In this document: positions 4,640 through 19,015 of the stretch, piece after piece
Layout of the letters: the number at the start of each line of letters is the position of its first letter
Numbering within the stretch: position 1 is the first letter of the stretch
DNA from: a virus
Taxonomy: Duplodnaviria; Heunggongvirae; Uroviricota; Caudoviricetes
Direction: 5' to 3' (one strand)
Virus record (IMG/VR): IMGVR_UViG_2703718841_000004
DNA: 19,015 bases
Notes under the pieces: model-generated
What the model was told of the DNA's origin: nothing
The model's input: only the letters and a program-made list of their open reading frames with translations
Databases searched by the model: none
Made by a program: the position numbers and the translations under genes

Positions 4640-5128
4640 TTAAAACCGTTCCAGAGTGCATACCATCGCATCGGCGGGTAGTTTTTCCGTGAAGTCGACC
4701 TGACCGTGTTTATCGAAGTGGATCAGTAATGCGCATCCATCATTTTGGGTTGGGGTGTTTTGTGCTGCTGGTGGTTGTTTTTGGCTGAAATAACAGTCTT
4801 CCAGTTTTTCGAACACTTCCCACGCCTGATCGGTTTCCAGCATTTTGGTGTGACGGGCTGCTCCGCGTTCTGTCCAGAGGATGAGGTGCTTTGTACGCGG
4901 TGCAACTAAGTTACTTTGAGTAACCTTGTTCTTAAATTCCCGCAACTCAGCCCCTTCCAATTTGAAGTAGTGTTTCCCACAAACAAAACGCTCGGCATTG
5001 CGTGTATAGTTCACTTTGATGTTATTAGTTTCGGTGCCATAAAGTTGTGCCAAAAGCTCGGTAGTAATGACAGGGATTTGGTTATGGGTGATCGGGGAAA
5101 GAGTTTCAACTGAGATTTGAATAGCCAT
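4640..5128 (-). CDS. ORF6N-domain (KilA-N/antirepressor-like N-terminal domain) phage protein
   Basis: 162 aa with ATG at 5128 and an RBS AAGGA. The segment ITTELLAQLYGTETNNIKVNYTRNAERFVCGKHYFKLEGAELREFKNK...HLILWTERGAARHTKMLETDQAWEVFEKLED matches the ORF6N pattern from memory. Confidence 0.6.
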   Translation of the reverse strand: MAIQISVETLSPITHNQIPVITTELLAQLYGTETNNIKVNYTRNAERFVCGKHYFKLEGAELREFKNKVTQSNLVAPRTKHLILWTERGAARHTKMLETDQAWEVFEKLEDCYFSQKQPPAAQNTPTQNDGCALLIHFDKHGQVDFTEKLPADAMVCTLERF

Positions 5129-5284
5129 AGGATGATCCTTTTTCTATGTGAATCATCACCACTGCTGACGCCAATCAGTATGGTGGTGAACTGTGCAGGG
5201 TTGGCGTAACCGGGAAAAAGGAACCGGCGCGGATCGCTCCGCCCCCACACAGCCCACCATTGAGATGTGACAGTGCAAACGACA

Positions 5285-5307
5285 ATAAAAAAGACGCTGG
5301 CGCGTCT
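5285..5307 (-). terminator. Candidate tR' (intrinsic terminator downstream of Q and of the putative late promoter)
   Basis: Perfect stem AGACGC/GCGTCT (5292-5297 / 5302-5307) with loop TGGC; on the minus strand it is followed by TTTTTATT. It lies about 95 bp downstream of the Q stop. Confidence 0.5.
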
Positions 5308-5367
5308 GTTGTCGCCTTTTTCATCCGGGACGCCAATCCCGACGCCAGATTTTGCTGGCGCGTGAGG

Positions 5368-5397
5368 AATATAGCCCCGGACAATGTGTCTGGTCAA
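5368..5397 (-). promoter_or_regulatory. Candidate late promoter PR' (sigma70-like -35 TTGACC, 18-bp spacer, -10 TATATT) just downstream of Q
   Basis: The reverse complement of 5392-5397 is TTGACC and that of 5368-5373 is TATATT. The position (5 nt after the Q stop, about 70 nt upstream of the candidate tR') mirrors the lambda PR'-qut-tR' layout. Confidence 0.35.
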
Positions 5398-5401
5398 GCT
5401 C

Positions 5402-7658: not shown

Positions 7659-7814
7659 TTACTCCTCAGGTTCGTAAGCTGTGAAGACAGCGACCTCCGT
7701 CTGGCCGGTTCGGATTCGTACCTCGCAGAGGTCTTTCCTCGTTACCAGTGCCGTCACTATGACGGTTAAACAGATGACGATCAGGGCGATTAACATCGCC
7801 TTTTGCTGCTTCAT
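7659..7814 (-). CDS. hokD: Hok/Gef-family type I toxin (HokD/RelF-like small membrane toxin)
   Basis: 51 aa, MKQQKAMLIALIVICLTVIVTALVTRKDLCEVRIRTGQTEVAVFTAYEPEE, recognised as HokD/RelF. RBS AAGGAG upstream of ATG 7814. Confidence 0.85.
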   Translation of the reverse strand: MKQQKAMLIALIVICLTVIVTALVTRKDLCEVRIRTGQTEVAVFTAYEPEE

Positions 7815-7871
7815 AGCCTGCTTCTCCTTGCCTTCCGGCACGTAAGAGGCTAACCTACATGTGTCTAGCAT
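7659..7871 (-). CDS. mok: mok (overlapping reading frame whose translation is coupled to hok)
   Basis: 70-aa frame starting at ATG 7871, running in frame into and ending with hok; this is the canonical mok/hok overlap. Confidence 0.5.
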   Translation of the reverse strand: MLDTCRLASYVPEGKEKQAMKQQKAMLIALIVICLTVIVTALVTRKDLCEVRIRTGQTEVAVFTAYEPEE

Positions 7872-7930
7872 GAAATTGGCCTCAGATTAATGTTAAGCGT
7901 CTTGCAGGACGCGTAATGTTAACTGGGGCT
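7863..7930 (+). ncRNA. sok: Candidate Sok antisense RNA (antitoxin) of the hok/sok module
   Basis: Inferred from hok/sok architecture. On the plus strand a possible -35 TTGCCT (7828-7833) and -10 TAACCT (7851-7856) precede the region antisense to the mok start and RBS, with a stem-loop GCGTC-TTGCAG-GACGC at 7907-7922. The boundaries are not established. Confidence 0.25.
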
Positions 7931-8392
7931 TTTCTCTATCTGCCGTTGGTGTTCATGCCCGAGGCAGATAGCCTCAAGCACCCACAGCCATTCTACTTAA
8001 CTACCGTTACCTCGCCAACATGAAATCAATCAGAAAGGCGAACCATAAGAACAATAACAACAATTAAATTCATTTTCTCAAATCCTGTTAACGACGCCCA
8101 TCCGACACTAACAACTTTCATTTATTATACTATTTCCCCATCGACGCTCTGCGTTGGCATAACACAAATCTGTCTGTCCGTTTGGGTAAAGAGCGGATAT
8201 CTGCAGTTTCAAAGAAACTGCGCATGCACACGAACTATCAAAGATAGTGATAACTGAGATAAAAACATATGGAAGCCTTCGGCATTTAAAAATAACAGCA
8301 AATCATATAAAAGGAAAGAGATAAGCAACATTTACATAACATGTATCACGATACGCCCCAGTGTTAATAAAAAGACTATCACTTTATTCTTT

Positions 8393-8398
8393 TATAAT
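8393..8398 (+). promoter_or_regulatory. Candidate -10 hexamer (TATAAT) of a promoter for the OLD-family gene
   Basis: Consensus TATAAT lies about 50 nt upstream of ATG 8449 in an AT-rich 590-bp intergenic region. No convincing -35 was found. Confidence 0.2.
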
Positions 8399-8448
8399 GT
8401 TAGTTTGCACTAGCAAGTGCCACTCCGAACAGAAAAAGGATACATGTA

Positions 8449-10260
8449 ATGAAGCTACAGCAATTTAATATTAAAAATTACAAGTCGATAAAAGATGAAA
8501 TAGAAGTATATATCGATGATATAGTTGTGCTAATTGGTCCAAATAACTCTGGAAAGTCAACAATATTAGATGCGTATGAAAAGTTTGCATCTTTAGGATC
8601 AGCAAAAGGCCTGACTGCTCATGATTTTTATAACTCAGATATATCTATACCAATTGAAATGTGCGGAATTTTCACTGATATCACTGATGATGATATTCGT
8701 ACATTAGGGGGAGAGAAATGGTTTTATAAAGATGATGCTCTTGACAGAAGAAATATGGCAAGAAAGTATGGGGGAGATTGGGAGAAAAATAATACCCCAT
8801 TGGAAAGCAAACTCTATTATTGTGTTAAATGGGTTTGGTCACATCCAGAAAAAGCAGCCCAAAAACAATCCTATGGCCTTGATGATGCCTCTGGCAAACG
8901 CATATTTATTGATGGGGGCTCTGGGGGACTTGACACACTACTACAAAGTCGAGTTCCTCAACCAATAAGAATAAGCCCAGATAAATCCATGGATGAAACT
9001 AAAAAAATTATCATAAGTTTCTTAAAGGAAGATGCAAAAGATGAGTTACTGAAAACAGGGGAAAGTAAAGCTGATATAATACAGAAAATACAAGAGTTGA
9101 CAGACACTCTTATGAAAGATTCCAAATCAAAAATCGATGATCTTCTACAGCAGGTCTCCAAATCATCATCATCTGTTTTTCCTGGGCTAGAACTGGAATT
9201 AAACATACTTTCCAAGGATCCCGTAGATGCGGATGTTATGGTTTCAGAATCTAACCTTACAGTGAAAATGGATGGGATAAATAGCTCTCTTCTCGAGAAC
9301 CAAGGTCACGGTGTTCGCCGCTCCGTTTTATGGTCTGCTTTGCAAATTTTGACTCACGAATCTCATGCACGAGATAAAATAAAAAAAGCGAAAGGTAAGC
9401 CTATCTCTGTTGAGAAAAAACAATATATTTTATTGATTGATGAGCCTGAATCATTTCTTCACCCTCCTATAATTAGAAGTGCGAGGGACTCGCTTTATGA
9501 TTTTGCAGCAAACAATGATAACTGGCAGGTGATGGCTACAACACACTCCCCTGTATTCATAGACTTATCCAAGAAGCACACGACTATAATTAGGATAGAA
9601 AAAGACAAATCGCTAAATAAAACAATATCTACAGATGAACTATCTTTTTCTGAAGAGGAAAAAGATAATATGAAAATGATAAGATTATGCAACCCAATGG
9701 TTAATGAGTTTTTCTTTTACGACAATATAATATTAGTTGAAGGCCCAACTGAAAAAATCGTCATTAACAAAATATGTGATATTGTCGGAGTTGATTATCA
9801 TATCATTGACTGTTTAGGAAAAGGGAATATAAAAACATTTGCTAAAATATTAAATCAATTTAACGTTGAGTATATAGCAGTACATGACTCCGACATTCCA
9901 AAATGCTTAAAGCAAGGAAGCGTTTCAGGTAATGGGGCATGGGGTTCAAATGTATCCATAATGAACGAATGCTCTAAAAGTAAAAAACCAATGGTATTTA
10001 TTCAAATACCTCATTTCGAAGGACTGTTTTTTAAAAATTTCAATCCATCAAACAAAGTTGAGACAGTAACATCAGTTCTATCTAATAATTTAACACCAGA
10101 ATACAAAGCAATATTTGATACATATAGCAGAATTTTAAACAAAGATCCATCTGTTTTTATCAGCTCCAACGAAAAAATGATAGACATGTATCATGCATTT
10201 TATGCCAGTAATAAAAACCAAATTGAGACGCTAAAGAATCCTGAAATCTGGATCCTTTAA
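8449..10260 (+). CDS. OLD-family nuclease-type protein: N-terminal ABC/SMC-like ATPase with coiled-coil insert plus C-terminal Toprim domain (class 1 OLD-like or fused PARIS-like); candidate anti-phage defence gene
   Basis: 603 aa. Walker A GPNNSGKST (aa 30-38, nt 8536-8562), coiled-coil insert about aa 180-240, Walker B ILLIDEPE (aa 327-334, nt 9427-9450), H-loop ATTHSP (aa 363-368), Toprim glutamate in ILVEGPTE (E431, nt 9739-9741), conserved Gly in CLGKG, and DxD in VHDSDIP (aa 480-482, nt 9886-9894). RBS AAGGA 8 nt upstream and a clean terminator downstream. It is plus-strand in a minus-strand neighbourhood and visibly AT-rich. Confidence 0.75.
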   Translation: MKLQQFNIKNYKSIKDEIEVYIDDIVVLIGPNNSGKSTILDAYEKFASLGSAKGLTAHDFYNSDISIPIEMCGIFTDITDDDIRTLGGEKWFYKDDALDRRNMARKYGGDWEKNNTPLESKLYYCVKWVWSHPEKAAQKQSYGLDDASGKRIFIDGGSGGLDTLLQSRVPQPIRISPDKSMDETKKIIISFLKEDAKDELLKTGESKADIIQKIQELTDTLMKDSKSKIDDLLQQVSKSSSSVFPGLELELNILSKDPVDADVMVSESNLTVKMDGINSSLLENQGHGVRRSVLWSALQILTHESHARDKIKKAKGKPISVEKKQYILLIDEPESFLHPPIIRSARDSLYDFAANNDNWQVMATTHSPVFIDLSKKHTTIIRIEKDKSLNKTISTDELSFSEEEKDNMKMIRLCNPMVNEFFFYDNIILVEGPTEKIVINKICDIVGVDYHIIDCLGKGNIKTFAKILNQFNVEYIAVHDSDIPKCLKQGSVSGNGAWGSNVSIMNECSKSKKPMVFIQIPHFEGLFFKNFNPSNKVETVTSVLSNNLTPEYKAIFDTYSRILNKDPSVFISSNEKMIDMYHAFYASNKNQIETLKNPEIWIL

Positions 10261-12806: not shown

Positions 12807-13226
12807 ATGGTTCATGAAGATAAAGCGCGTAAAGAGTTCGCCAGTAGGCTTGCGCTAGCCTGTGAAAACGCTGGTTATGAACAACATGGAAGGCAGGCAG
12901 AAATTGCCCGTCGAATGAAATTAACACCAAAAGCGGTTAGCAAATGGTTTAATGGCGAAACAATTCCTCGCCGGGAGAAATTAAGGGAATTAGCAACACT
13001 AATAGGAACAACACCAACCTATCTTTTGGGAGAGGATACAGAAGAAAGTGGACAGGTACGTTTCTATCAGGAGTTAAATCCAAGACAAAAAATCATCATT
13101 GACCTTCTGGACGAGCTCCCTGACAGTGAGACAGATGAACTTTTAAAAACTCTTGAAGAGAAAAAACAGAAGTACAATGCAATTTACGAAGAGTTAGCAC
13201 GAAAGAAAAAACAAAAAGCCTCTTAA
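12807..13226 (+). CDS. Prophage repressor, XRE-family HTH (DicA/RacR/CI-like)
   Basis: 139 aa; N-terminal HTH (...FASRLALACENAGYEQHGRQAEIARRMKLTPKAVSKWFNGETIP...) and an acidic/helical C-terminus. It is divergent from the Cro-like gene. Confidence 0.8.
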   Translation: MVHEDKARKEFASRLALACENAGYEQHGRQAEIARRMKLTPKAVSKWFNGETIPRREKLRELATLIGTTPTYLLGEDTEESGQVRFYQELNPRQKIIIDLLDELPDSETDELLKTLEEKKQKYNAIYEELARKKKQKAS

Positions 13227-13299: not shown

Positions 13300-13350
13300 A
13301 AATGTACTAAAAGTACTTTACAACAATGAACGCAAAGTACATTATATACC
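13300..13350 (+). promoter_or_regulatory. OL/PL-like operator-promoter region for the early-left operon
   Basis: ATGTACT (13302-13308), the 10-bp palindrome AAAGTACTTT (13310-13319) and AGTACAT (13336-13342) share the motif found in the divergent region. A candidate -35 TTACAA (13318-13323) and -10 ATTATA (13341-13346) overlap them. Confidence 0.4.
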
Positions 13351-13820: not shown

Positions 13821-13979
13821 ATGGAATTTAAAGATTTACCTCCAGACACTCAGAAAATCGCCGCAGAAACACTGAAATCTCTCATTTTGAACGGGGAGAC
13901 AGAAAAGGTAGATCCAGCTAAAAAACTGGCTCAAGAAATCAGAGAAGCCTTTATTGCTCTTTATCAGTCTTCTCCATAG
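13821..13979 (+). CDS. Small hypothetical protein (52 aa)
   Basis: ATG 13821; translation MEFKDLPPDTQKIAAETLKSLILNGETEKVDPAKKLAQEIREAFIALYQSSP; colinear with the operon. Confidence 0.45.
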   Translation: MEFKDLPPDTQKIAAETLKSLILNGETEKVDPAKKLAQEIREAFIALYQSSP

Positions 13980-14136
13980 CGGCTTGTTTTTCTTCTTTTA
14001 ATATATTGCGAATTGTAATAACTGAATTAGCCGCCTCTGAAGGGGATGACATTTTGCCAGCCCGAATTAACTCAACTGTTAAGTTCAAAGCTGCAACAGA
14101 TGGATAGGTAAATGGGTTAATTAACTTGTCTGACAT
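13951..14136 (-). CDS. Small hypothetical protein encoded antisense to the early-left operon (61 aa)
   Basis: ATG 14136 is preceded by a near-ideal RBS GGAGGA with 4-nt spacing (MSDKLINPFTYPSVAALNLTVELIRAGK...). Its 3' end overlaps the plus-strand ORF 13821..13979 by 29 nt. Confidence 0.35.
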   Translation of the reverse strand: MSDKLINPFTYPSVAALNLTVELIRAGKMSSPSEAANSVITIRNILKEEKQAAMEKTDKEQ

Positions 14137-14620
14137 TTTATCCTCCATTGAGGTTCTGGGTTAAAAATGGAGACCAACATGCTGCCACATGTGGTCGTGC
14201 GCCGGACACGGATAAGAATCCGGCACTGACAGTTTACTGAAAGGATATATCCCTGAAAAGTCAGGGCATAACGCGAAAGCGCACGGCGAAGTTCGTCTCA
14301 CTGTACGGTGTCGTTAAATTTAATTCGACCGTGCGCTTCCGGTTGTGGCACTCCGCGAAATGGCGCGGCGGTACGTATGGCGGGGTTATTCCTTCCCCCT
14401 GTTGAGGACACCGGGTTGTCAGGTTGACCATACGCCTGAGTGACAACCCCGCTGCAACACCCCATGTTGATTACCTTTTCATTGCTGGCTGATGTCCGTC
14501 CTTTTTAAAGTGAATTTTGTGATGCGGTGAATGCGGCTCAGCGCACGCGGAACAGTTAAAAAGGCCAGTTGACTTCCGTATTGGTTCTTATGGGTGGGTT
14601 CTCTGTATCCGGCGTTAATT

Positions 14621-14634
14621 GTTAACTAGTTAAC
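14621..14634. promoter_or_regulatory. Perfect 14-bp palindrome GTTAACTAGTTAAC upstream of dicB (candidate protein-binding site)
   Basis: Exact reverse-complement symmetry, 56 bp upstream of the dicB ATG, followed by the tandem 7-mers AGGCACC AGGCACC (14644-14657). Confidence 0.3.
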
Positions 14635-14689
14635 GTCACCTGGAGGCACCAGGCACCGCATCACAAAATTCATTGTTGAGGACGCGATA

Positions 14690-14872
14690 ATGGAAACGTT
14701 ATTACCAAACGTCAATACGTCTGAAGGTTGTTTTGAAATTGGTGTCAGAATCAGTAACCCTGTATTTACTGAAGATGCCATTAATAAGAGAAAACACGAA
14801 CGGGAGCTATTAAATCAAATATGCATTGTTTCAATGCTGGCCCGTTTACGCCTGATGCAAAAAGGACGCTGA
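14690..14872 (+). CDS. dicB: Cell-division inhibitor DicB
   Basis: 60 aa, METLLPNVNTSEGCFEIGVRISNPVFTEDAINKRKHERELLNQICIVSMLARLRLMQKGR, near-identical to K-12 DicB as recalled. RBS GAGGA. Confidence 0.85.
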   Translation: METLLPNVNTSEGCFEIGVRISNPVFTEDAINKRKHERELLNQICIVSMLARLRLMQKGR

Positions 14873-14874
14873 CA

Positions 14875-15078
14875 ATGAATACAGCATTTGCACTCGTTCT
14901 GACAGTTTTTCTTAATACAGGCGAACCAGTCGATCTTGTTATTGGTATACATGACTCAATGAAAGAATGCATGGCTGCCGCAGCGGAACAGAAAATTCCC
15001 GGCAACTGTTATCCGGTTGATAAAGTTATTCGCATGGACAATAACGAAATCCCGGCAGGACTTAAAACAGCACCGTAA
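14875..15078 (+). CDS. ydfD: YdfD-like small membrane lysis/toxic protein (DUF1482)
   Basis: 67 aa from ATG 14875 (MNTAFALVLTVFLNTGEPVDLVIGIHDSMKECMAAAAEQKIPGNCYPVDKVIRMDNNEIPAGLKTAP), starting 2 nt after the dicB stop; RBS AAGGA. Confidence 0.7.
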   Translation: MNTAFALVLTVFLNTGEPVDLVIGIHDSMKECMAAAAEQKIPGNCYPVDKVIRMDNNEIPAGLKTAP

Positions 15079-15158: not shown

Positions 15159-17597
15159 ATGAGTAAAGTCTTTATTTGCGCCGCCATTCCGGACGAACAG
15201 GCAATAAAGGAAGAAGGTGCAGTCGCTGTAGCCACTGCCATTGAAGCCGGCGACGAACGCCGCGCCCGTGCCAAATTTACCTGGCAATTCCTGGAGCAAT
15301 ATCCGGCTGCTCAGGACTGCGCTTATAAATTTCTTGTTTGCGAGGATAAACCCGGCATGCCCCGCCCTGCCATCGACTCCTGGGATACCGAATATATGCT
15401 GGAAAACCGCTGGGATGAAGAGTCAGCCTCTTTTGTCCCGATCGAACCAGAATCCGATCCGATGAACGTCAATTTTGACAAGCTGTCCCTTGAAGTACAG
15501 AACGCGGTCCTGGTTAAGTTCGGTACATGTGAAAACATCACCGTTGATATGGTGATTAGTGCACAGGAATTGTTGCAGGAGGACATGGCAACATTCGACG
15601 GGCATATCGTTGAGGCATTGATGAAAATGCCTGAAGTTAACGTCATGTATTCAGAACTAAAGCTGTTCGCCATCGGGTGGGTTAAACATAAATGTAAGCC
15701 GGGTGCAAAATGGCCTGAGATCCAGACAGAATTACGCACCTGGAAAAAACGTCGCGAAGCCGAACGCAAAGAAACCGGGAAATACACGTCTGTTGTTGAT
15801 CTTGCCCGCGCCAGAGTCAACCGGCAGCACACTGAAAACTCAGCAGGAAAAATCAACCCCGCCACTGCCGCCATTCGTCGCGAATACAAGCAGACATGGA
15901 AAACGCTGGATGAAGAACTGGCCTACGCTCTGTGGCCTGGCGATATTAATGCCGGAAACATTGACGGCAGCATCCATCGCTGGGCAAAAAATGAAGTTAT
16001 CGACAAAGATCGCGAAGACTGGAAGCGCATTTCCGCATCAATGCGCAAACAACCCGATGCCGTCCGCTACGACCGTCAGACTATTTTTGGCCTTGTCCGT
16101 GAGCGTCCGATCGACATTCACAAAGATCCCGTGGCACTGAACAAATACATCACTGAATACCTGGCGACAAAGGGCGTGTTTGAGGATGAAGAAACAGACC
16201 AGAACACTGCTGATATTCTCCAGCCGTCAGCAGCACAAACTGATGCAGTGGAAACTGAAGTATCTGATACCCAAAAAAATGAAAGCACGCTGGAAACTGA
16301 ACCATCTGTAGAGCGTGAGGGGCCGTTCTACTTCCTTTTCACCGATAAGGATGGCGAAAAATATGGTCGTGCAAACAAACTTTCTGGTCTGAATAAGGCG
16401 CTGGCTGCAGGGGCTACTGAAATCACGAAAGAAGAATATTTTGCCCGCAAAAACGGCACATACTCAGGTTCACAACAAAATACTGGTGCATCTGACACGA
16501 TCGCACAACCAGAGCCGGTAAAAGTTACCGCTGACGAAGTAAACAAAATTATGCAGGCAGCCAATATCAGCCAGCCTGACGCCAATAAGTTGCTTGCTGT
16601 ATCACGTGGCGAATTTGTTGCAGGGATTAGCGACCCGAATGATCCGAAATGGGTGAAGGGGATTGAAACCCGCGATTCAGTGAATCAGAACCAGAAAGAA
16701 ACGGAACAGAACGACCAGAAAGCGGAACAAAACAGCCCAAATGCGCAACAGGAGCCGGAAAAAGCCTGCACCGCCTGCGGTCAGACCAGCGGCGGCAACT
16801 GCCCTGATTGTGGTGCGGTGATGGGCGACGCAACGTATCAGGAAACCTTTAATGAAGAAAATCTGGATGAATCTCAGGAAAAAGATCCGGAGGAAATGGA
16901 AGGCGCTGAACATCCACACAAGGAGAATGCTGGCAGCTATCAGGACCACGCCAGCGATAGCGAAACTGGCGAGACGGCAGATCCCTTAATTGCGGTGAAC
17001 GGTCATCACGTTATCACATCCACCAGCAGAGTGTGGTACCACCTGATGATCGACCTTGAAACGATGGGTAAAAAAAGTAATGCCCCCATCGTGGTTATTG
17101 GTGCTGTGTTCTTCGATCCGCAGACCGGGGAAATCGGGCCAACATTTTATATCGTTATCAGCCTGGTTGACGCTATGGACACGGGTGCTGTTCCTGATGG
17201 TTCCACCATCGAATGGTGGCTTGCTCAGTCCAGCGAAGCCAGATCTGCAATTTTAGTTGATCAGGTAAAACTGGTTGACGCTCTTATTCAATTTCGGGAA
17301 TTCATCAATGAGTACTCGGATGAAGAATTCGTTCAGGTATGGGGCAATGGTGCAACTTTCGACAACACTATTTTACGAACCTCGTACGAACGCCTGAACA
17401 TCCCCTGCCCGTGGCGTTACTACAACGATCGCGATGTACGTACAATCGTTGAACTGGGAAAAACTATCGGCTTCGATGCCAGAACAGTTATTCTATTTGA
17501 AGGCGTGCGCCACCATGCGCTGGATGATGCCCGTCACCAGGCGAAATACGTTACAGCCACGATACAAAAACTGATCCCGAATCAGGCTGATTTTTAA
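15159..17597 (+). CDS. Large early-left exonuclease: RecE-like N-terminal/central region fused to a C-terminal DnaQ-like DEDDh 3'-5' exonuclease domain, with an internal Cys4 zinc ribbon
   Basis: 812 aa, RBS GAGGT. The C-terminus has Exo I MIDLETMG, Exo II WGNGATFDNTIL and Exo III HHALDDARHQAKY. A CxxC...CxxC motif (CTACGQTSGGNCPDCG) and acidic low-complexity linkers are present. The segment LLAVSRGEFVAGISDPNDPKWVKGIETRD resembles the RecE central region as recalled. Confidence 0.8.
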   Translation: MSKVFICAAIPDEQAIKEEGAVAVATAIEAGDERRARAKFTWQFLEQYPAAQDCAYKFLVCEDKPGMPRPAIDSWDTEYMLENRWDEESASFVPIEPESDPMNVNFDKLSLEVQNAVLVKFGTCENITVDMVISAQELLQEDMATFDGHIVEALMKMPEVNVMYSELKLFAIGWVKHKCKPGAKWPEIQTELRTWKKRREAERKETGKYTSVVDLARARVNRQHTENSAGKINPATAAIRREYKQTWKTLDEELAYALWPGDINAGNIDGSIHRWAKNEVIDKDREDWKRISASMRKQPDAVRYDRQTIFGLVRERPIDIHKDPVALNKYITEYLATKGVFEDEETDQNTADILQPSAAQTDAVETEVSDTQKNESTLETEPSVEREGPFYFLFTDKDGEKYGRANKLSGLNKALAAGATEITKEEYFARKNGTYSGSQQNTGASDTIAQPEPVKVTADEVNKIMQAANISQPDANKLLAVSRGEFVAGISDPNDPKWVKGIETRDSVNQNQKETEQNDQKAEQNSPNAQQEPEKACTACGQTSGGNCPDCGAVMGDATYQETFNEENLDESQEKDPEEMEGAEHPHKENAGSYQDHASDSETGETADPLIAVNGHHVITSTSRVWYHLMIDLETMGKKSNAPIVVIGAVFFDPQTGEIGPTFYIVISLVDAMDTGAVPDGSTIEWWLAQSSEARSAILVDQVKLVDALIQFREFINEYSDEEFVQVWGNGATFDNTILRTSYERLNIPCPWRYYNDRDVRTIVELGKTIGFDARTVILFEGVRHHALDDARHQAKYVTATIQKLIPNQADF

Positions 17598-17658
17598 TGT
17601 TCAACCGTCGCCAGTTGTAGTTGGTATTCTGCAACTGGCGCGTTCCGGAGTGATAACC

Positions 17659-17928
17659 ATGAGCGAACAGTACCTGATAACGCTCGATGAGTGGAAACCC
17701 AAACGGTTCAGTCTCCCAATAACAAACACTACCCTGGTGAAATACGGAAAACTTGGATACATCGTACCAAGACCACAAAAAATTCGTGGACGTTGGCTGA
17801 TAGATCGCCGGGCAGTATTTGTTGGACCTGGTGAAACGGGAATTGCGCCGGAAATTCATACTGGCGATGATGATGCACTGAAGGAGATTTTAACTCATGT
17901 CACCGAGGCCACGAAAAAACAGCACTGA
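17659..17928 (+). CDS. xis: Excisionase-like protein (Xis, DUF1233-type)
   Basis: About 90 aa from ATG 17659 (MSEQYLITLDEWKPKRFSLPITNTTLVKYGKLGYIVPRPQKIRGRWLIDRRAV...), RBS GGAG. It lies immediately upstream of the integrase and overlaps it by 32 nt. Confidence 0.55.
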   Translation: MSEQYLITLDEWKPKRFSLPITNTTLVKYGKLGYIVPRPQKIRGRWLIDRRAVFVGPGETGIAPEIHTGDDDALKEILTHVTEATKKQH

Positions 17929-19015
17929 CGTAGCCGGTCTTTACGAAAAGTTTGATCGCAGAACTGGCAGAGTTTACTACCAGTATAAAAACCCTGTGAC
18001 TGGAAAATTTCACGGACTCGGAACAGACAAAGGCAAAGCTGAAAGAATCGCTTCCACAGCCAATCAGCGAATAGCTGCAGCAGAAGCCGAATATTTCATG
18101 CGCAAAATTGATGAAAGTCCATCAGCAACAAAACGTCGGGGTATCAGATTAAAGGCATGGGTTGATCGATATCTGAAAATACAGGACACGCGACTGAAAA
18201 ATGGAGATATTGCAGCTACAACTCACAAAGAAAAAACTCGAATGGCTGCATACCTGGTTTCCCGTCTGGGAAACCACCCATTGAAAGAACTGGAAGTAAG
18301 AGACTTTGCATTAATACTGGATGAGTGGCTGGATAAAGACATGGTCAGCACAGCGAGAGTAAATCGTGGATTATGGGTTGATATTTATAAAGAAGCACAG
18401 CATGCAGGGGAAGTTCCTCCTGGATGGAATCCTCCGGAGGCTACCCGTAAACCGATCCCTAAAGTAACCAGAGCCAGACTCACCCTGGAAGACTGGCAAA
18501 AAATTTACAACGCAACGCCTGAAAAACACTTTATCCGTAACGCAATGCTTCTTGCGATTGTTACTGGTCAGCGCCGTGATGACATTTGCCATATGCGTTT
18601 TTCAGATGTGTGGAACGAACACCTGCATATTACCCAGGGAAAAACTGGAATGCGTCTGGCGTTACCGCTGACGCTACGCTGTGATGCCATTGGGATATCG
18701 CTAAAAGAAGTGATTGATGGATGCAGGGACAGAATATTGAGTCCATACCTGATTCATAGTCGGCACCAAAAACAACCAAAACCAATGAGTAAAGACAACC
18801 TGAGCGATTACTTTGCCAAAGCGCGGGAGCTGGCTGGAATAATTCCACCAGCAGGAAAAACTCCGCCAACATTTCATGAACAACGTTCTCTATCAGAACG
18901 GCTGTACCGTGCACAGGGTATCGATACAAAAACATTACTGGGACATAAAGTCCAGGCAACCACCGATCGTTATAACGATACTCGTGGTCAGGAATGGGTT
19001 AAATTGGTTGTTTGA
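17897..19015 (+). CDS. int: Site-specific tyrosine integrase (lambda Int family)
   Basis: 372 aa, RBS AAGGAG. It shows the lambda-Int-like layout, with the catalytic-region motifs ...AIVTGQRRDDICHMRFSDV... and ...LLGHKVQATTDRYNDTRG... The TGA stop is the last codon of the window. Confidence 0.9.
   Translation: MSPRPRKNSTDVAGLYEKFDRRTGRVYYQYKNPVTGKFHGLGTDKGKAERIASTANQRIAAAEAEYFMRKIDESPSATKRRGIRLKAWVDRYLKIQDTRLKNGDIAATTHKEKTRMAAYLVSRLGNHPLKELEVRDFALILDEWLDKDMVSTARVNRGLWVDIYKEAQHAGEVPPGWNPPEATRKPIPKVTRARLTLEDWQKIYNATPEKHFIRNAMLLAIVTGQRRDDICHMRFSDVWNEHLHITQGKTGMRLALPLTLRCDAIGISLKEVIDGCRDRILSPYLIHSRHQKQPKPMSKDNLSDYFAKARELAGIIPPAGKTPPTFHEQRSLSERLYRAQGIDTKTLLGHKVQATTDRYNDTRGQEWVKLVV

Follow-up and report, generated by a model that had tools for sequence, protein, structure and literature searches.

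A RecE-derived scaffold with a DEDDh exonuclease head in a common lambdoid prophage protein of Escherichia coli

What might a prophage gain from a large protein that resembles the recombination exonuclease RecE in its middle, ends in a nuclease of another fold and has no annealing partner beside it? This question is raised by the gene at positions 15159..17597 of a 19,015-nucleotide stretch of Caudoviricetes DNA (IMG/VR record IMGVR_UViG_2703718841_000004; the whole stretch is called the window below), an open reading frame on the + strand that starts with ATG and encodes 812 amino acids. We conclude with high confidence that its product is a modular phage enzyme, built from a RecE-derived scaffold, a YdfE_N cap and a DEDDh head, and that at residue 610 the PD-(D/E)XK 5'-3' head of RecE has been replaced by the DEDDh head. 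This lambdoid prophage enzyme is intact, under selection and very common. As its role we favor, with a probability of roughly 45%, that of a tethered 3'-5' exonuclease of DNA ends or 3' flaps, which would serve host RecBCD-Chi-RecA recombination. Both the architecture and the nuclease-only class of recombination module are already in public resources, so the protein is not a new kind of system and its architecture is no discovery. What is new here is the head-swap joint with recE of the Rac prophage at residue 610, the scaffold with three alternative heads, the contrast in annealase content between loci with DEDDh heads and loci with RecE heads, and the count of Chi sites. The remaining interest lies in the function of the gene and in the three-head scaffold.

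From its N to its C terminus, the protein consists of YdfE_N, a linker, YdfE_C, an acidic linker, a mini-domain of 50 residues, a RecE-type middle with a four-cysteine (Cys4) zinc ribbon, another acidic linker and the DEDDh head. The gene and its modules are as follows:

15159..17597, + strand: whole gene; encodes a modular exonuclease of phrog_2082 and corresponds to an intact K-12 ydfE (open reading frame list with translation, PHROG, and the ratio of nonsynonymous to synonymous substitution rates, dN/dS).
15159..15770, + strand: YdfE_N domain (residues 1-204), an alpha/beta unit followed by helices, unrelated to the RecE N terminus.
15771..15890, + strand: basic disordered linker (residues 205-244; predicted local distance difference test score below 50 at residues 205-237, composition, dN/dS of 0.35).
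15891..16178, + strand: YdfE_C helical domain (residues 245-340), common with RecE residues ~251-350 (PF27432, hhalign, BLASTP, dN/dS of 0.11).
16314..16463, + strand: mini-domain (residues 386-435, GPFYFLFTD...GRANK...EITKEEY), with a dN/dS of 0.055, near-invariant in 55 sequences and in sister proteins.
16585..16990, + strand: DNA-level homology to Rac recE (residues 476-610, equivalent to RecE 456-590), ending at the head-swap joint (blastn, BLASTP, NCBIfam PRK09709).
16767..16811, + strand: zinc ribbon C537-x2-C540-x7-C548-x2-C551, with acidic linkers on either side (sequence, conservation, dN/dS of 0.15).
17040..17558, + strand: DEDDh 3'-5' exonuclease head of the Rv2179c/DexA family (residues 628-800; Pfam, match to PDB entry 8KEL, alignment, invariance).

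The first-pass annotation of this DNA, made from the letters alone, had recognized a C-terminal DEDDh domain with all three motifs, and this reading is borne out. The Pfam family Rv2179c-like (PF16473) matches residues 628-800 at 223.5 bits against a gathering cutoff of 27 (E=1.9e-66), over positions 2-175 of the 177 in the profile; the generic RNase_T model scores below threshold. The Exo motifs lie at residues 630-637, 728-739 and 785-797. Residues D632, E634, D735, H785 and D790 align with the five catalytic residues of T4 DexA (the set is taken from PMC12153337), occupy columns that are invariant also when stand-alone homologues are included, and are invariant in 55 full-length homologues. 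D632, E634, D735 and D790 are predicted metal ligands and H785 the predicted general base, with which the head would use two-metal catalysis to strip free 3'-OH ends of nucleotides. The sole solved relatives found by sequence (phmmer against PDB sequences, E=1.1e-9) are 8KEL and 8KEN, the T4 DexA structures of PMC12153337; DexA is about 29-31% identical to the head. Pfam describes Rv2179c of Mycobacterium tuberculosis, which gives PF16473 its name, as an exoribonuclease, a small bacterial protein that stands alone, and the head matches the profile of this family nearly end to end. Since phmmer against PDB sequences returned no Rv2179c match at E<=1, this relationship is seen only at the profile level.

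The head belongs to a large family (3,076 homologues, many of them stand-alone proteins of 180-190 residues; 1,395 phage records), and the stand-alone forms are abundant in Enterobacteriaceae prophages. DexA and the E. coli protein EcD (HREX), which belong to the same DEDDh subfamily, are themselves stand-alone proteins of ~190-227 residues, whereas in the window protein the domain forms the last quarter of 812 residues. EcD starts at the equivalent of M630, exactly where the head begins (MIDTET versus MIDLET; the N terminus of EcD is known from its primer only). EcD itself (GenBank HAK9828821.1) is absent from the 120 closest homologues of the head, and the 20-mer of its published reverse primer gave one chance match in viral contigs and eight matches in metagenome contigs; in no case did the forward primer lie upstream. 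Phage vB_EcoM-720R4 carries a stand-alone homologue of 190 residues with ~60% identity (locus L007, 5989-6561), which is the last gene of the early-left operon, after yfdP, yfdQ and HD-hydrolase genes. As this copy also sits there, the left-end operon slot seems to be preferred for the nuclease, fused or not.

The first-pass annotation had also described the body of the protein as RecE-like. This holds for residues ~237-611, while residues 1-204 are a YdfE_N domain. Residues ~237-610 are homologous to the non-catalytic part of Rac RecE: BLASTP aligns residues 279-611 to K-12 RecE 294-591 (E=4e-59), hhalign matches residues 237-335 to RecE 251-350 (95.6% probability, E=1.3e-8), and blastn against recE finds 80.5% identity over 411 nucleotides (residues 476-610), stopping at residue 610, or RecE 590. 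The NCBIfam equivalog for exonuclease VIII (PRK09709/NF007259) scores 260.9 bits against a cutoff of 1269 and matches residues 219-612 only. The zinc ribbon is real, and its four cysteines are invariant in 55 sequences and conserved in RecE; its spacer is 7 residues (CxxC-x7-CxxC), not 11 as first read, and the acidic linkers reported on both sides of it are present in the sequence. Beyond the joint the homology ends. K-12 RecE 615-850 matches the Pfam PDDEXK-like family DUF3799, and the window protein has neither a Pfam match to a PD-(D/E)XK domain nor BLASTP similarity to RecE 595-866; the head thus differs in fold from the RecE nuclease, as had been proposed, and is expected to have the opposite polarity. 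A RecE-like N terminus was rejected, since Exonuc_VIII (PF06630, which covers RecE 2-178) has no Pfam match in the protein and residues 1-236 have no hhalign match.

RecE (exonuclease VIII) of Rac is therefore the closest guide to the design of the protein and to its differences. Both are encoded in the early-left operon, in the slot directly before xis-int, and both place a C-terminal nuclease head on a long non-catalytic scaffold. They have in common a homologous YdfE_C-like domain, the middle and the Cys4 ribbon with its acidic linkers, with DNA identity of up to 80%. In contrast, RecE has a PD-(D/E)XK (5'-3') head and an Exonuc_VIII N terminus, where the window protein has a DEDDh (expected 3'-5') head and YdfE_N, and recE has an adjacent recT, while here xis comes directly after the gene. 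The nuclease of RecE resides in its last ~260 residues, and its N-terminal part is without clear function (PMC11610958).

The N-terminal modules identify the protein as a member of the YdfE family. Both YdfE domains are present and in order (YdfE_N, PF27430, and YdfE_C, PF27432; these matches are the precomputed Pfam annotation of the exact 812-residue protein), and the first 256 residues are 87% identical to ydfE of the K-12 prophage Qin, which lies in the same operon (dicA-ydfABC-dicF-dicB-ydfD-ydfE). In K-12, IS2 truncates ydfE after ~256 codons, and YdfE_C, the middle and the nuclease are all missing, whereas the window gene is intact. The AlphaFold2 model contains two folded domains, residues 1-204 and 245-340; fold searches with the N terminus were uninformative, and no informative solved relative of YdfE_N was found. 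This N-terminal module forms a small family: 176 clusters were found among 1.84 billion representatives.

The same scaffold bears three alternative heads: the PD-(D/E)XK head of RecE, the DEDDh head and a Rad52-like annealase. The last is found in a sister family (phrog_2489, ~1,700 relatives; for example protein P0254, at 8001-10226 of locus L012) from Enterobacter, Klebsiella, Citrobacter, Pantoea and Salmonella, which is annotated as "exodeoxyribonuclease VIII", has the same scaffold of YdfE_N, YdfE_C and mini-domain, and occupies the same slot before int; its gene is followed by a Sipho_Gp157 gene and then int. The C-terminal head of these proteins has no Pfam match and no nuclease recognizable by any test run, and its structural model matches the annealases RAD52 and Mgm101. 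The nuclease annotation of this family is thus probably wrong, and its members may be the "RecE-2" proteins that are said to be without a nuclease domain in PMC12315714. The Rad52 relationship came by structure only; the sister-family profile gave no match at E<=1 against PDB sequences. The mini-domain is common to the window protein and this annealase-headed family, is not found in Rac RecE and matches no known family. It is a candidate partner-binding element. At the other end of the scaffold, 14 of 80 DEDDh loci (within L023-L102) encode a RecE-type Exonuc_VIII N terminus instead of YdfE_N, which indicates that both scaffold ends have been exchanged independently.

These exchanges bring to mind a broader proposal, which we regard as doubtful at present: the RecE/YdfE scaffold would be a shared platform that delivers interchangeable DNA-end heads to one target, and the DEDDh form would be a one-gene recombination strategy that feeds host RecBCD-Chi-RecA instead of replacing it. 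If true, it would give a pro-recombination role to a class of enzymes that normally antagonizes recombination.

The gene is far from rare, contrary to what the first-pass annotation implied. By megablast, at least 80% of it is present in 3,221 of 5,426 complete E. coli genomes (~59%), with a median of two places per genome among E. coli genomes with any match, and 237 indexed assembly blocks contain the exact 812-residue sequence. Isolated phages carry the gene as well, including Evi, Tritos, mEp460_ev081, HannyBb, PhiR42_1 and the PPompW group; the Tritos copy has 85% nucleotide identity over the full gene length and all four modules, and Evi, Tritos, mEp460 and HannyBb are plaque-forming carriers. 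In E. coli it is annotated as "exonuclease", "3'-5' exonuclease" or "3'-5' exoribonuclease domain-containing protein". phrog_2082 covers the protein end to end (residues 1-812 against 1-823 of 823), and the architecture YdfE_N, YdfE_C and Rv2179c-like is already listed in Pfam for this exact protein. The first-pass annotation had allowed that this might be a common and already characterized prophage exonuclease of exactly this architecture; common and of listed architecture it is, but not characterized, as a biochemical or genetic study of the full-length protein was not found in the literature on the ydfE exonuclease or on Rv2179c-type prophage proteins.

Selection acts on the whole of this protein. 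When the window gene was compared with 54 distinct homologues of full length, dN/dS was 0.22 for the whole gene, 0.16 for YdfE_N, 0.11 for YdfE_C, 0.13 for the RecE-type middle, 0.15 for the zinc ribbon and 0.22 for the DEDDh head; at 0.055, the mini-domain is the most constrained. All folded modules thus lie between 0.05 and 0.22, under purifying selection, versus ~0.67 in both acidic linkers. Single copies do decay, although the family is under purifying selection. One case is the IS2-cut K-12 gene; another is the closest copy in a complete genome, that of E. coli EC11 (locus L001, 17001-19438), which is 99.9% identical, one base shorter and annotated as a frameshifted pseudogene.

The absence of a partner gene, which the first-pass annotation had noted, withstood searches by open reading frame size, Pfam, PHROGs and six-frame phmmer. 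The features around the gene, together with a Chi site inside it, are as follows:

12807..13226, + strand: gene for a DicA-like helix-turn-helix repressor at the head of the operon (Pfam HTH_3; layout as in K-12 Qin, dicA-ydfABC-dicB-ydfD-ydfE).
13317..13345, + strand: candidate operon promoter, the only promoter-like + strand site upstream (consensus scan; the count of such sites is not above chance).
14690..15078, + strand: dicB and a DUF1482 (ydfD-like) gene, directly upstream (DicB, E=1.5e-37; DUF1482, E=1.2e-22; same order in EC11, Tritos and others).
17020..17027, - strand: Chi octamer inside the exonuclease gene (pattern search).
17650..19015, + strand: excisionase and integrase genes, directly downstream (Pfam Exc, Arm-DNA-bind_1 and Phage_integrase; EC11 annotation).

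The gene is the distal member of a dicB-type operon, which is DicA-repressed in K-12, and the consensus scan found no promoter-like site directly before it. In all assembly places shown, the order is dicB, DUF1482, the exonuclease gene, xis and int, beside potCD. Because xis-int follows directly, there is no room for an annealase gene on the 3' side. Between the repressor gene and the exonuclease gene there is no open reading frame above 85 residues, and only DUF1391, small unknowns, DicB and DUF1482 are encoded; an annealase hidden in a small open reading frame was rejected by size, Pfam, PHROGs and six-frame seed searches. Six-frame phmmer found no match in the window to RecT, Redbeta, Erf, the Rad52-like head, lambda Exo or Gam. 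The same approach applied to viral contigs found a RecT, Redbeta, Erf or Rad52-like gene in 0/80 loci with a DEDDh head versus 80/80 with a RecE head (the positive control, with RecT in all 80); the 80 DEDDh loci come from closely related E. coli prophages (75-99% identity), so they are not 80 independent observations and the contrast is qualitative. Lambda Exo and lambda Gam were likewise found in 0/80 DEDDh loci, and the Tritos early regions have no annotated annealase. DicF, which lies upstream of dicB in K-12 Qin and Tritos, was not found in the window at the gathering threshold or at E<=1; in the interval 13900-14690, the one match was to STnc100, at 14513-14667, and fell below threshold (33 bits versus a gathering threshold of 47).

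Chi sites (GCTGGTGG) are dense. The window, which is only part of the prophage, holds 11 in 19 kb versus 0.42 expected (~26-fold), a number reached in 0 of 200 shuffles. They lie at 2884, 3173, 3212, 4500, 4767, 6521, 6573, 12164, 12209, 17020 and 18845; seven are on the - strand and four on the + strand, and seven match the top-strand orientation of the lambda map. The early regions of Tritos and Evi show the same Chi bias. A survey of 325 lambdoid phages (Genome Res 2025, PMC12315714) describes DnaQ-like 3'-5' nucleases in recombination modules, with Tritos as the prototype of a class that has a nuclease and many Chi sites but no single-strand annealing protein (SAP), single-stranded DNA-binding protein (SSB) or anti-RecBCD function, and argues that Gam-less, Chi-rich lambdoid phages depend on host RecBCD. 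The window has the features of this class: a nuclease, no SAP, SSB or Gam, and many Chi sites. The main text of that survey is without the domain architecture of the Tritos nuclease, its RecE-derived scaffold or the head swap.

With no Gam, no annealase and dense Chi sites, recombination of this phage would fall to the host RecBCD-Chi-RecA pathway. Among the roles suggested by the first-pass annotation (recombination, nucleic-acid processing or host interference), the evidence favors DNA-end processing linked to recombination. The gene would be the sole recombination-type gene of a Qin/Tritos-type lambdoid prophage, placed distally in an early-left operon of the dicB type under repressor control. 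Upon induction or infection, the nuclease would be tethered by the scaffold to a partner or DNA-end substrate common with RecE and the Rad52-like-headed sisters, and its trimming of 3' overhangs or 3' flaps would make phage ends or intermediates usable by RecBCD-Chi-RecA. The slot is in keeping with this role, as the gene occupies the genomic position of recET, directly upstream of xis-int. The choice of DNA over RNA as the substrate, the polarity, the tethering and the cooperation with RecBCD are predictions of this proposal.

Several points weigh against it, besides the relatedness of the 80 loci. The role is a reading of the sequence, and the scaffold's partner is hypothetical. 3'-5' exonucleases usually inhibit homologous recombination, and DnaQ-type genes beside int may not be true members of the recombination module (PMC12315714). 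The characterized stand-alone homologue in E. coli, EcD, is an anti-T4 defense nuclease and not a recombination enzyme (PMC12153337), and the exoribonuclease activity of Rv2179c in the Pfam description makes an RNA substrate possible. Finally, family scans of the sizeable open reading frames of the window found no SSB and no anti-RecBCD protein, with Abc2, GamL and MuGam covered only by the Pfam and PHROG scans, so that anti-RecBCD proteins other than Gam are excluded in that way only.

The example of EcD suggests a defense or exclusion nuclease acting between phages (HREX-like), whose head would degrade the DNA of superinfecting phages, such as T-even DNA with 5-hydroxymethylcytosine (5hmC) or the exposed recombination 3' ends of competitors, while the scaffold would regulate or localize it. 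EcD digests 5hmC DNA in vitro and, when plasmid-borne, protects E. coli from T4 (PMC12153337); it and DexA are in the same family as the head, and the abundance of stand-alone homologues in prophages and the start of EcD at the head boundary also speak for this reading. The operon also encodes DicB, and the prophage carries an OLD-family defense nuclease, which makes it rich in exclusion functions. However, the protein does not retain the residues by which DexA recognizes 5hmC: in the place of W152 it has Y755 (Y, H or C in the 55 sequences), and in that of D169 it has T769 (A or T), with some uncertainty for the latter, as the alignment is gapped and an invariant D773 lies four residues away. 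The loss of the tetramerization residue D90 that defines EcD, which has Ala there, is absent here, the equivalent D707 being invariant in the 55 sequences. Membership in a known defense system was rejected, as PADLOC returned only a generic DEDDh match (E=0.002). Moreover, since the gene lies distally in a lytic operon under repressor control and has no promoter-like site directly upstream, expression in the lysogen is not expected, and defense leaves unexplained why the head sits on a scaffold common with RecE and an annealase. We therefore consider a defense role unlikely, though deserving of attention. A further suggestion, that the enzyme scavenges host DNA, as proposed for T4 DexA, so that the fragments feed phage replication, draws on the homology to DexA and on the early lytic expression predicted by the operon position. 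A bulk role of this kind needs no large conserved tethering scaffold, the DexA tetramer residue S87 is not conserved (K or P here), and we know of no temperate lambdoid phage that degrades host DNA; little likelihood is left to it.

An exoribonuclease like Rv2179c, trimming the RNA 3' ends of host or phage transcripts such as the small-RNA-rich RNA of the dicB-type operon, is improbable in our view, if slightly less so than scavenging. The best Pfam family is named after a 3'-5' exoribonuclease, NCBI calls many copies "3'-5' exoribonuclease domain-containing protein", and the dicB-type operon is known for the RNA processing that yields DicF. But DexA and EcD, the assayed family members from phage and E. 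coli, act on DNA, the scaffold is common to two DNA-recombination enzymes, and DicF was not detected in the window. Least credible, and already disfavored, is a decaying relic, a functionless, domain-shuffled remnant carried passively by defective prophages. The truncated K-12 ydfE and the frameshifted EC11 copy are what such decay would look like, yet 72 of 80 viral-contig homologues are intact (>=766 residues), the catalytic residues and zinc ligands are invariant in the 55 sequences, and the gene is carried by plaque-forming phages. Purifying selection in every folded module further argues that the whole multi-module protein is maintained.

Whichever role applies, the gene is among the most widespread uncharacterized prophage genes of E. 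coli, often present in several copies per genome, and is the intact form of a K-12 pseudogene without annotated function. The N-terminal two-thirds of RecE are needed for efficient linear-linear recombineering and have no known function; three heads on one scaffold allow its function to be probed directly. If the DEDDh form aids RecBCD- and Chi-dependent growth, as in the role that we favor, this would explain the nuclease-only lambdoid class; if the gene instead serves in defense, as EcD does, it would count as a prophage-encoded immunity gene of very wide occurrence.

Elsewhere, the window encodes CII-like, replication, Ren-like, OLD-family, hok/sok, DUF968/HNH, RusA, Q, antirepressor and lysis functions. 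The OLD-family gene (8449-10260, + strand) encodes a 603-residue protein with ATPase and TOPRIM nuclease domains (PADLOC Old, E=3.4e-73; Pfam AAA_15 and OLD-like_TOPRIM). It is oriented opposite to the early-right operon, with hok/sok on one side and the Ren-like and replication genes on the other, and is probably a defense moron; in related prophages this slot is filled by other cargo, such as AbiH. The Old protein of P2 is triggered by RecBCD inhibition, which would suit a prophage that leaves RecBCD active. Adjoining this gene is a hok/sok-type toxin-antitoxin locus (7659-7983, - strand; sok RNA, 114 bits). At 4640-5400 (- strand), an antirepressor gene (4640-5128) is preceded on its upstream side by a P1/P7-type C4 antisense RNA (5179-5264), the a1/b1 target of this RNA (5322-5374) and isrK (5287-5361), which makes an antirepressor control module in a lambdoid prophage.

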